This document shows, one piece after another, positions 17,525 through 28,778 of a DNA stretch of 30,919 bases (position 1 is the stretch's first letter; each line of letters opens with the position of its first letter). The notes under the pieces are model-generated. The model worked only from the letters and a program-made list of their open reading frames with translations. It was not told the DNA's origin and did no database searches. Source of the DNA: Patescibacteria group bacterium (GTDB lineage: Bacteria > Patescibacteriota > WWE3 > UBA101185 > UBA10185); the NCBI GenBank assembly GCA_022710505.1, contig JAKLGS010000001.1, forward strand, positions 1 through 30,919, in the 5' to 3' direction. Both the position numbers and the translations under genes were made by a program.

Positions 17525-17546
17525 TTGGGGTGGTTGACGGGTCTCG
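17525..17546 (-). repeat. att core copy (tRNA-His 3' end duplicate)
   Basis: TTGGGGTGGTTGACGGGTCTCG identical to 24961-24982. Confidence 0.95.
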
Positions 17547-22419: not shown

Positions 22420-22446
22420 CTATAAGATTTAGTATAATGCAACTGT

Positions 22447-23187
22447 ATGAGGTCTTCCCAATCGAGCAATAATTTTAATAAATATATTAATATATTTTTT
22501 GACAAAGATATATTTAAGTTTATTACTTCAAAAGATAAAGCTTACAAATCTATTAATAAAAGAGATAAGAAAGAGGTAGGTGCATTTAAAGATAAAGCTA
22601 GACAAGACTTAAACACCCTTTTAAAAAAGAAAGGTATCCCATTATCTTGGCAAGAGCCAATATGCTCCACTATCTGGAACCCCGCCTGTATAGTCCCTAT
22701 CTATGATGGAATTCATATCGAGGTAGGTGATGAGGTAGTAACAATAGAGAAGAACATGGGTACTGATAAGAAGTATCTATTAAAAACAGAAAAGAAGAAT
22801 AGCGAAAAGAAATATAACATCGTTGTATCTAGAAACGTGACAAAAAAAGATTTCATTGACTTTATTAATACCCACTGGGAGTTTTTATCTGGCCTACAAA
22901 AAACTCTTAATCTTCCTAAAGACCCGCCTATTAGAACAAGCAAGACCCTCCACGCCATAGATGTAATTGGTATGAGGGACTTTAAAAGAAAAAGTTTTGA
23001 AGAGATTGCCACAGAAATGTTCGATTATGTTTCGAATACAGAAAATATTAACCCAACAGAGAAAAAGAGATTACTTAAAACCTTTTCATCAGGAGATAAC
23101 GTTAGAAAAAATGTCTACGAAAGATTCAAAACCGGGTTCTTAAATGACTCAATATTTGTACCAAAAAATAACCTTAAGAAAAAATAA
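22447..23187 (+). CDS. Hypothetical protein, possible C-terminal HTH regulator
   Basis: RKSFEEIATEM...DNVRKNVYERFK; TATAAT 8 nt before the ATG. Confidence 0.6.
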   Translation: MRSSQSSNNFNKYINIFFDKDIFKFITSKDKAYKSINKRDKKEVGAFKDKARQDLNTLLKKKGIPLSWQEPICSTIWNPACIVPIYDGIHIEVGDEVVTIEKNMGTDKKYLLKTEKKNSEKKYNIVVSRNVTKKDFIDFINTHWEFLSGLQKTLNLPKDPPIRTSKTLHAIDVIGMRDFKRKSFEEIATEMFDYVSNTENINPTEKKRLLKTFSSGDNVRKNVYERFKTGFLNDSIFVPKNNLKKK

Positions 23188-23383
23188 TTAGAGTCTAATA
23201 TCTGTTTTAAAGGATATTGGAATCTATGAATAGATCTTCGAGGTGTTTAAAAAAACCCATTACTATAAATAAAAGCGATGTATACGATGTTAATATTGCT
23301 ATCGATATTCTTTCAGAAATTGCACTTTTAAAATTAATGAAATTTCAAACGGCTCAGATAACAAATACAAACAAAAAATGATG

Positions 23384-23487
23384 TATAATTATCTTGTTGC
23401 CAACATAATAGGATTGTTCTTTTTAACGACCGTCTTAGGACAACTAAGAGCAATCTTTTGTTGGCAACACCTAGGGCGGTCTTTATT
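23384..23487 (+). promoter_or_regulatory. -10 box and structured leader of the recombinase gene
   Basis: TATAAT 23384-23389; 12-bp stem 23428-23439 / 23470-23481; 11-bp inverted pair 23395-23405 / 23459-23469. Confidence 0.6.
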
Positions 23488-23490
23488 ATT

Positions 23491-25119
23491 ATGAGCAAAT
23501 ATGCAATAGGGTACATTCGTGTATCCTCAGAAGAACAAATAACTAACTATTCTTTGAGTAACCAGGAAGATAAATGTAAAGATTTTTGTAAATCTAATGG
23601 ATATGAGTTACTGAGTATATTTCGTGAGGAAGGTAAATCTGCTACCACTTTAAATAGACCTGAACTAATAAATCTTCTTGAATATTGTAGAAAAAACAAG
23701 GGAAAGGTTGATGCGTGTGTGATTTATAAGATAGATAGATTATCTCGTAATACATATGATTTTCTAGAGATAAAAAGAAGATTAGCATCGTGTGGTGTTG
23801 CGGTTGTCTCCATCACAGAACCTACTGATGATTCTCCAACCGGTGAGTTTATGGAAACCATGATGGCAGCACAAGCAAGGTTTGATAACGCATTAAAAAG
23901 TGAAAGAACTAAAGAAGGTATGACAAAGAGATTAGAGGCGGGGTTACCTACTAACCCCCTTCCAGTTGGTTATAAATATCAACTTGGTGAAGACGGGAAA
24001 AACCACCCTGTTAGAGATGATCCGAAGTTTTCGCTTTTACAGCAGGCTGGATATGACTATATGACGGGGATTTATAACAAGGTTCAGATTGCTGATATTT
24101 TAAATAAGAGAGGTTTTACTACTAAGAAAAACAAGTCTGTTTGTTCACAGTTTATATCAGACTTCTTTGCAAATAAGTTCTACAAAGGTGTTATTTATTC
24201 TAAAGTTAGAAATCAGGACTATATAGGTAGTTATGAGAAGATGTTTACAGAGGAGGAGTGGTACAAAATACAGCAGATATCTAAAGGAAATCATTTATTA
24301 GCACAGCCGAGAAAAAGAAATAATCCCGATTTTCCTCTTAGACATTTTACTGTGTGTGGTAAGTGTGGGAAACCAATATCAGGTAATTGGTCAAAGGGGA
24401 GAAATAATAGATATGCTTATTATAGGTGTTTAGACCACGCCCCCTCCATTCCGGTCGAGACATTTGAATGTGAGTTCGTAGAGTTACTTGAGTCTATTAA
24501 GCCGTCTAAGGAGACTGTAGAGCGCTTCACAGAGGTATTAAAAGCTAAGTATAACGATAAGTATAGGGAACTCACAAAAGACGTATCTACTTTAAATAGG
24601 CAGTTAGAGGAGCTAAAGAATGAACAGAGAATCCTTGTTAAGAAGAATCTAAAAGGTATTTATGACGATGAGCTTTTTATGGAAAGGAATGAGGAGATAA
24701 AAGACGAGATAGTTATAAAACAGACTCGGATAAGTGAAAGCTCCATAGACAAGATTAATATTGATACTGTTTGCACATTTGCGAATCATTTTATCAACAA
24801 TATTTCACAGACATGGCGAACCGCTGATTTAGATACTAAACAAAGGCTTCAGGAGATAATATTTCCAGAGGGGGTGATTTATGACTTTCCTGGATTTCGA
24901 ACCGCCACTTTATCTTGTCTTTTCAATGTTTTAAGGGAGTCTAGCGAGTCAAATGAGCATTTGGGGTGGTTGACGGGTCTCGAACCCGCGACCTCCTCTT
25001 CCACAGAGAGGCGCTCTAACCAACTGAGCTACAACCACCGCAATTTAAAAATTCTTATCACAGAATTCTCCTGTATTTTACCAATAAATCAAGTTTTGTT
25101 GTACTACGAATTTTCCTAA
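23491..25119 (+). CDS. Large serine recombinase (integrase); ATG 23491 preferred over TTG 23458
   Basis: GYIRVSS catalytic motif, DRLSRN, recombinase domain, CGKCG...YYRC zinc ribbon, coiled coil; last 45 aa are antisense tRNA and flank. Confidence 0.93.
   Translation: MSKYAIGYIRVSSEEQITNYSLSNQEDKCKDFCKSNGYELLSIFREEGKSATTLNRPELINLLEYCRKNKGKVDACVIYKIDRLSRNTYDFLEIKRRLASCGVAVVSITEPTDDSPTGEFMETMMAAQARFDNALKSERTKEGMTKRLEAGLPTNPLPVGYKYQLGEDGKNHPVRDDPKFSLLQQAGYDYMTGIYNKVQIADILNKRGFTTKKNKSVCSQFISDFFANKFYKGVIYSKVRNQDYIGSYEKMFTEEEWYKIQQISKGNHLLAQPRKRNNPDFPLRHFTVCGKCGKPISGNWSKGRNNRYAYYRCLDHAPSIPVETFECEFVELLESIKPSKETVERFTEVLKAKYNDKYRELTKDVSTLNRQLEELKNEQRILVKKNLKGIYDDELFMERNEEIKDEIVIKQTRISESSIDKINIDTVCTFANHFINNISQTWRTADLDTKQRLQEIIFPEGVIYDFPGFRTATLSCLFNVLRESSESNEHLGWLTGLEPATSSSTERRSNQLSYNHRNLKILITEFSCILPINQVLLYYEFS
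24962..25039 (-). tRNA. tRNA-His: tRNA-His (GTG) with encoded G-1 and CCA
   Basis: Acceptor GTGGTTG/CAACCAC, anticodon arm CCTCT-CTGTGGA-AGAGG, T-arm GCGGG-TTCGAGA-CCCGT, G-1:C73. Confidence 0.97.
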
Positions 25120-25163
25120 ACTTCATCCTTTTAAAAACTTAAACTCTCTGATAATATAGTCCC

Positions 25164-28683: not shown

Positions 28684-28778
28684 TTTTCTCTCCTTTTTTG
28701 GTATGATTTTTACCCTTTTTAGTTTTTGGGATAAGATTATATCAAAATAAAACAAAAAAGTGGTAGAATATCCAACGT

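Follow-up and report, generated by a model that had tools for sequence, protein, structure and literature searches.

The locus at positions 23384-23490 of the analyzed DNA raises the question of why a recombinase gene is preceded by a structured leader whose 5' end is complementary to the inside of its own hairpin. This DNA, hereafter called the window, is the whole 30,919-nucleotide stretch from a Patescibacteria group bacterium. A sequence-only reading of the window had proposed that the leader is an RNA switch that gates integrase expression, by comparison with the RNA pairing and premature termination of satellite P4, or alternatively that it contains two palindromic operators. The landmarks of that reading were all recovered: TATAAT, both complementary 11-mers, the basal stem, the GCAA loop, the U-rich tail and the ATG are each located where it had placed them.

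All parts of the leader lie on the forward (+) strand. The -10 promoter box TATAAT (23384-23389), which is kept in a 49-sequence alignment of homologous leaders, is followed by the 5' strand of helix a, TGTTGCCAACA (23395-23405), and the second base of this 11-mer, a G at 23396, is the probable transcription start. The 3' strand of the helix (a'), TGTTGGCAACA (23459-23469), is the exact reverse complement of TGTTGCCAACA. An internal loop, TAAT (23406-23409; loosely WTAAT in the alignment), separates helix a from helix b, in which the 5' strand AGGATTGTTC (23410-23419) pairs with b', GAGCAATCTT (23448-23457), with two G-U pairs included. This second complementarity of 10 bp was absent from the sequence-only reading, and it lengthens the pairing of the 5' end with the hairpin to approximately 20 bp. 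A U-rich linker of conserved composition (L1, 23420-23427) leads to a terminator-like hairpin, the basal stem of which is formed by the 5' arm of helix c, GACCGTCTTAGG (23428-23439), and its 3' arm c', CCTAGGGCGGTC (23470-23481), which adjoins a'. As previously read, this stem comprises 12 bp, including two U-G pairs. The post-c segment (23440-23447) resembles the 3' end of helix a and covaries with the 5' end of a'; it contains CAAC (23441-23444), which is the alternative partner of GTTG (23460-23463) in only one of the two folds described below (fold A). The segments follow one another along the leader in the order a, b, c, post-c, b', a' and c'. The hairpin is followed by the tract TTTATTATT (23482-23490), which is U-rich in composition, and then by the ATG of the recombinase gene at 23491.

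When the region 23391-23500 was folded as RNA, the energy was -32.7 kcal/mol, compared with -19.0 ± 2.7 kcal/mol in 200 dinucleotide shuffles (z = -5.0), and none of the 200 shuffles was as good. The 11-mer pattern has two exact matches in the window and three matches when one mismatch is allowed, against 0.44 expected. Each of the window 11-mers is a near-palindrome (TGTTG-S-CAACA), so the window alone cannot tell an inverted repeat from a repeated palindrome, and the decision falls to the homologues.

The gene that follows the leader (23491-25119, + strand) encodes a 542-residue protein, in which Pfam revealed the Resolvase (PF00239, 8e-38), Recombinase (PF07508, 5e-7) and Zn_ribbon_recom (PF13408, 3e-6) domains. 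The product is a large serine recombinase, as it carries all three domains of this class and falls within the expected length of about 450-700 aa. The same Pfam result rules out a P4-type integrase, and neither the tyrosine integrase nor the CI/seqA-B-C region of a P4-like satellite was found at the window locus. With this gene identity, and with no match to a c4/P4-type or any other Rfam family, the link to P4 drawn in the sequence-only reading is only an analogy. No Shine-Dalgarno sequence was found at normal spacing for the recombinase gene. As the last gene, it closes a co-directional array, one member of which encodes a DnaB-like/AAA_25 helicase, and its 3' end overlaps a convergent tRNA-His gene (24962-25038). 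Copies of the tRNA-His 3' end, which represent the att repeats, are located near 17526 and 24961. In the motif-bearing loci L105-L109, the recombinase 3' end also overlaps a convergent tRNA gene, for Ile, Ile, Val, Gly and Ser, respectively. These elements seem in general to integrate at the 3' ends of tRNAs, with a crossover that falls within the recombinase gene.

We found a similar leader at 10 of 24 related recombinase loci, the proteins of which are only 24-65% identical; recombinase homologues were present in 18 of the 86 genomes of the family. A first covariance model, built from those ten leader-bearing loci, identified 31 copies in 23 of the 86 family genomes. With a second model, the motif was detected in 33 of the 134 class genomes; of 151 genomes sampled across the phylum, 11 were positive, and six of these lie outside the class. 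Together with 24 metagenome copies obtained by a contig pattern scan and filtered with the covariance model, the total amounted to 73 copies from Patescibacteria genomes and metagenomes, of which 49 are genome copies. The window's own genome (847 kb in 133 contigs, 90% complete) contains a single copy according to the covariance model search. No family of Rfam 15 matched the region 23000-23700 in a cmscan run in E-value mode; the best scores came from eukaryotic snoRNA and miRNA models, at 16-24 bits against gathering thresholds of 39-85 and with E about 1. A pattern scan of IMG/VR gave 17 pattern matches, none of which was confirmed by the model at a convincing score (best, 24 bits). A full-text search of the literature found no description of such a motif, which is not proof of its absence. 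The leader is a copy of an approximately 95-nt RNA motif of Patescibacteria that is conserved phylum-wide and, as far as searched, undescribed.

Covariation was counted in the 49-sequence alignment, which had been fitted to helices a and b. Standard pairs occupied 93.0% of cells, compared with 67.2% after partner shuffling and 33-42% in slid controls in which the partners were moved by 1-3 columns. Changes on both sides were present in 28 of 31 pairs, and the covariation score of 0.708, against 0.205, was reached by none of 500 shuffles. In helix a, 96.9% of cells were paired and both-sided changes were found at 9 of 10 pairs; the corresponding values were 92.9% and 5 of 5 for the five-pair core of helix b, and 97.1% and 11 of 13 for the 13 alignment pairs of helix c. 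Since helix c lies outside the structure of the search model, its 11 doubly changed pairs are unbiased. RNAalifold, applied to the same alignment, gave helices a and b. The alignment contains 142 G-U cells against 26 A-C cells, an excess indicating that the structure is selected as RNA on the sense strand, and two positions of helix c are mostly U-G.

These results also bear on the two proposals made from the window. The sequence-only reading had named covariation in homologues as a check of its switch proposal, and such covariation is present both for the pairing of the 5' segment with the hairpin interior and for the hairpin itself. Its alternative of two palindromic operators did not hold up: the helix a arms have 38 different sequences in the 49 homologues, and a and a' are identical at 0-7 of 10 positions with complementarity kept, so the arms are complementary but unlike and do not represent repeated operators. 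The same palindrome occurs twice in the window's copy only, and a repeated palindromic operator was not found across the 49 homologues. The feature is a structure at the RNA level with two alternative pairings, in which a/a', the hairpin and the stem specific to fold A all covary in the 49 homologues. At the level of structure, the data support the reading of the leader as an RNA switch.

The promoter was similarly well conserved in the alignment. The -10 hexamer is TATAAT in 27 copies, TATATT in 9 and TATACT in 3, and the G equivalent to 23396 is invariant (49/49), located exactly 7 nt past the -10 box in 45 of the 49. Given this conserved box and fixed G, the transcript most likely starts at the base of helix a, at its first nucleotide or 1 nt from it. 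A weak -35-like TTG is present 17 nt upstream across homologues, and the window's copy has no good -35 element. At the other end, a start codon follows c' at a median distance of 7 nt in 39 of the 49 genome copies, and the open reading frame has the N-terminal motif of serine recombinases; among all 73 copies, 53 lie 0-28 nt (median 7) before a serine-recombinase ATG. The 8 nt past c' contain on average 4.9 T across homologues. This arrangement, a GC-rich stem-loop and then a U-rich tract, is that of an intrinsic terminator. The tract is broken by A residues, and a simple terminator scan gave no call at the leader hairpin, as its large internal loops fall outside the rules of the scan. By its anatomy, fold A would be an intrinsic terminator and would also occlude the initiation region.

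The hairpin of fold A spans 23428-23481 in the window. It consists of the GC-rich c/c' stem of 12-13 bp, an inner stem between the CAAC of post-c and GTTG, and an apical tetraloop hairpin formed by b'; the inner stems in the window are CAAC/GTTG and AAGA/TCTT, capped by the GCAA loop (23450-23453), which lies inside b'. The 5' half of a' is used in both folds, and in fold A the 3' half (GCAACA) bulges out unpaired. In fold B, strands a and b, which make up the first 25 or so nucleotides of the predicted transcript, pair with b' and a' inside the hairpin to form a 5'-anchored helix of approximately 20 bp. Helix a/a' is nested with b/b', and both cross c/c'; the c/c' and a-b/b'-a' pairings have no nucleotides in common. 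With transcription from the predicted start, the 5' end would be paired in fold B and exposed as approximately 30 single-stranded nucleotides in fold A.

The two folds are close in energy. The minimum-energy structure alternates between them among homologues, and when each fold was enforced, the mean energies were -29.6 kcal/mol for A and -28.9 kcal/mol for B (difference, -0.8 ± 4.7 kcal/mol). In the window's copy, fold B is favored by 5.3 kcal/mol (-31.0 against -25.7 kcal/mol), and the default state may therefore simply be ON. The evidence for two states comes from the 5' half of a', which pairs either with the 3' end of helix a or with post-c, and each of these pairings covaries. In particular, the duplex of post-c with the 5' end of a' had an energy of -4.43 kcal/mol for self combinations and -1.99 kcal/mol for non-self combinations, and none of 10,000 permutations was as low; this specificity persisted when each of the 18 sequence classes was reduced to one representative. 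Post-c is CAAC in most copies and otherwise CATC, CAGA(AC) or TCAC, and it always matches its own a'. Additionally, 21 of the 49 homologues have a GNRA or UNCG tetraloop at the apex of fold A. As this apex lies inside b', there would be no reason for it if b' were always paired with b.

The two folds would be mutually exclusive. The exclusion of c/c' by fold B is drawn from geometry: a' abuts c' with a spacing of 0-1 nt in all copies of the alignment, the c 5' arm sits in a loop of approximately 29 nt at the far end of the 20-bp helix, and the linkers measure only about 7-8 nt.

We consider it moderately probable that the locus consists of a promoter and an approximately 95-nt, two-fold leader placed before the serine recombinases of tRNA-targeting elements, in which the partition between folds A and B sets recombinase output. 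Fold A would be the OFF state, with the terminator-like hairpin, the U-rich tract and the AUG 9 nt further on, and the ribosome landing zone would be buried. In the ON state, fold B, the 5' strands a and b would pair with b' and a' and dissolve the inner stems of fold A; the new helix would sterically keep c/c' from closing and would free c' and the start region. The share of A and B would then determine how many transcripts read into the recombinase gene and are translated. As the trigger, we favor a co-transcriptional (kinetic) partition intrinsic to the RNA, by which recombinase dosage would stay low, and a factor of the element or the host that binds the free 5' strand is the alternative.

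Several candidate signals for flipping this balance were rejected. A metabolite riboswitch was discarded as only the U-rich linker and the -10 box are conserved outside the helices, with no pocket; in the search for an effector-like pocket, few unpaired positions were found to be conserved in the 49-sequence alignment. For T-box/NCCA pairing, the sole UGG lies in helix c, where other copies have UAG, CAG or CGG and c' has changed to compensate, and Rfam gave no T-box match at the window leader. A thermosensor was rejected as the A/B balance shifts by only about 2 kcal/mol over 5-45 °C. Five extra 5' nucleotides flipped the minimum-energy structure of the window's copy. An insulator against read-through was nevertheless rejected, as upstream extensions of 20-80 nt in the 49 copies changed the A/B balance by a mean of 0.02 kcal/mol. 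RNase III processing of the approximately 20-bp helices was set aside on a weak negative, namely that the 90%-complete genome showed no RNase III domain (PF14622). Finally, a role as guide RNA was rejected, as inspection gave no match of helix a or b to the att repeats of the element.

An alternative is suggested by the copies that lack a recombinase. We found 20 of the 73 copies to have no directly following recombinase ORF, including L054, L056, L078, L079, L082, L086-L088, L090 and L095 in genomes and L121, L127, L133, L150, L160, L183, L195, L220 and L223 in metagenomes. Base pairs are kept at 94% in these copies and at 96.5% in the linked ones. With about a quarter of copies lacking the gene, the RNA is not strictly a recombinase leader, and their intactness is not predicted for a pure cis-regulator. 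In most of them, c' is followed by a conserved AT-rich sequence, GTTCTTTAAAATTTTTGCGTTTTTC, and then by GC-rich hairpins with CGAGCCGAC...TTCGGA; L078 and L160 share only the first bases of GTTCTTTAAAATTTTTGCGTTTTTC. The 15-mer core of GTTCTTTAAAATTTTTGCGTTTTTC occurs only beside motif copies among 228 loci, and the part downstream of the recombinase-less copies matched no Rfam family. Three of these copies face a convergent tRNA gene 120-300 nt away. The idea of a split gene, with the recombinase ORF at the other end of the element, was rejected, as no recombinase was found within 20 kb in three genomes.

Such copies speak for a self-contained small-RNA gene, with a promoter, an RNA of approximately 93 nt and a terminator, in which the RNA would have its own function and cis control would be secondary. 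The RNA might act in trans on read-through transcripts or related elements, in the manner of the short IsrK RNA or P4 CI RNA, or might render some other service to the recombinase or the element. This account is consistent with the conserved promoter, the terminator-like 3' end, the pairs kept in the recombinase-less copies and the compensated differences between helix sequences. It also has a precedent in IsrK of the Gifsy-1 prophage, which has its own promoter and terminator, gives rise to a terminated small RNA and, by read-through, to an mRNA for which it is the leader, and exists as silent and active conformers (PMC4825925). This RNA has a trans activity and exerts translational control over an antiterminator operon (PMC4825925). 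It is the nearest documented analogue from a mobile element, with a promoter, a terminator-like end and two conformations in common; here, however, no sequence or structural homology is present, and the downstream gene is a recombinase.

We consider a self-contained small-RNA gene unlikely. The variable strands a and b are paired in cis, the unpaired parts are short and AU-rich with no obvious seed or guide, and the window's genome has only one copy. Two of the loci also point to another origin of the solo copies. In L087 (1550-1900), a remnant of the recombinase C-terminus (residues ~415-511; tblastn E = 9e-7) lies past the solo copy, and by its sequence this locus is a recombinase gene with a large internal deletion. 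In L139 (7000-7340, minus strand of the locus), a GC-rich insert of approximately 230 nt separates the leader from an intact serine-recombinase ORF that carries an AGGAG ribosome site of its own. Inverted copies of the AT-rich GTTCTTTAAAATTTTTGCGTTTTTC flank the insert, which resembles a small inverted-repeat element with the junction of leader and ORF as its target. In light of the decayed locus and the insert, solo copies may be recent relics and not evidence of an independent function. Overall, the recombinase-less copies may be relics or derivative non-autonomous elements, or they may be a sign of a function of the RNA itself.

The leader could instead fold into a compact pseudoknot that contains all three helices together and is sharply bent at the a/b internal loop, in which case it would be a fixed element, such as a module that protects or stabilizes the 5' end or a platform for protein binding, and not a switch. 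The c/c' and a-b/b'-a' pairings use different nucleotides and all covary, the constant a'-c' junction of 0-1 nt fits coaxial stacking, and the 5'-terminal base is paired, so that the 5' end would be buried. We nevertheless give this arrangement only a small chance. The 5' half of a' has two conserved covarying partners that are not usable together, and the hairpin capped by the tetraloops can form only while b' is free of b. We also observed insertions of 17-20 nt in the U-rich linker between helices b and c in two metagenome copies (L149:7705-7829 and L196:107-231), which indicate that the length of L1 is unconstrained and argue against a tightly packed pseudoknot; linker L2 varies from 4 to 9 nt among copies. 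From geometry, linkers of 7-8 nt would not span a straight stack of approximately 33 bp.

It is quite unlikely, in our view, that the RNA is a functional partner of serine-recombinase elements that is selected even in gene-less derivatives. Such a partner could act in trans in immunity or dosage control through the hypervariable a/b helices, or it could be an RNA cofactor for the directionality of recombination in elements without a recognizable directionality-factor gene. Very improbable is a feature of the DNA itself, either two palindromic operators or a recombination site (double-stranded att or an attC-like folded single strand): the near-palindromic window 11-mers, the neighboring recombinase gene and the structure-conserving variation, which attC sites typically show as well (Weinberg et al. 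2017, PMC5737381), are compatible with it, but the homologue arms are complementary yet of different sequence, the G-U excess over A-C leaves only one strand able to fold, the -10 box lies at a fixed distance with the transcription start at helix a, and the att repeats, the tRNA-His 3'-end copies, are elsewhere. Serine recombinases, moreover, are not known to use folded single strands.

Returning to the two-fold leader, we compared it with known systems. Terminator/antiterminator leaders (attenuators, riboswitch platforms, T-box, PyrR/TRAP/RAT) likewise have a short leader with its own promoter, a GC-rich hairpin with a U-tract just before the ORF and a competing upstream pairing that is incompatible with the complete hairpin. 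In contrast, the competitor here pairs with the hairpin interior and not with the basal 5' arm, so that exclusion would be topological, and its anchor is the extreme 5' end of the transcript. The leader was found to have no aptamer-like pocket, leader peptide, specifier/UGGN or known protein site. In its logic, the leader would be a bistable leader or attenuator, with the gating and the trigger as we infer them. In P4 immunity, CI RNA pairs with seqA/seqC and leads to premature termination (PMC4825925). The two systems have complementary segments in the leader region in common, and premature termination is proposed here as the output; the pairing in our case is intramolecular, however, and no c4/CI-type Rfam match was found. 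The CI RNA of P4 arises by processing and controls replication genes in trans as an antisense RNA, and the P4 integrase belongs to another recombinase class.

In the fold-back inhibition of the IS10 transposase and the 5'-3' pairing of hok mRNA, an enzyme or toxin is kept low by structure at the mRNA 5' end. There, the structure conceals the ribosome binding site of read-through transcripts or keeps it hidden until processing. Here, added upstream sequence leaves the balance unshifted, and a terminator-like hairpin is included. The bridge RNA or seekRNA of the IS110 family is similar in being a structured non-coding RNA just upstream of a recombinase gene, with gene-less copies as well. Bridge RNAs serve DEDD recombinases and read target and donor DNA through variable internal loops, whereas here the variable parts are paired together and the large serine recombinase is a complete enzyme that brings its own DNA-binding domains.

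Genome engineering makes wide use of large serine recombinases, and the literature that was searched reported nothing on RNA-level control of their expression. The motif would be the first conserved leader RNA tied to these enzymes. With both folds visible by covariation and no obvious ligand pocket, it would offer a compact case for kinetic or topological RNA switching. Patescibacteria are uncultured and their gene regulation is almost unknown, and the motif would provide a handle on integrase dosage in tRNA-targeting elements. The gene-less copies additionally hint at a possible independent role of the RNA.

Some minor observations were made at the same loci. In the homologous locus L043 (G075:C2), a long palindrome, TATTTCCCTATTTCCCTA...TAGGGAAATAGGGAAA, lies approximately 20-70 nt upstream of the -10 box of the leader, over the -35 region; it looks like a candidate operator for a DNA-binding regulator and is not present in the window's copy. 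A single-protein scan of a species-genome collection gave one close relative with the leader. Locus L073 (CAZQTZ010000026.1) carries the leader and a recombinase with 65% identity in a MAG labelled Bathyarchaeia (an archaeon), which is probably a case of mis-binning or possibly of transfer. Several window genes lack a Shine-Dalgarno sequence and carry a TATAAT-like box 6-9 nt ahead of the ATG (22425-22446, 25145-25163 and 28760-28778). This suggests that leaderless mRNAs are common in this genome, among which a structured leader of 95 nt stands out. Finally, a small ORF of approximately 51 aa (23228-23381, + strand), for which no Pfam family was found, ends with its stop codon 2 nt before the -10 box of the leader. 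A similar small ORF precedes many related recombinase genes, whether the leader is present or not, and we regard it as a candidate accessory or directionality factor.
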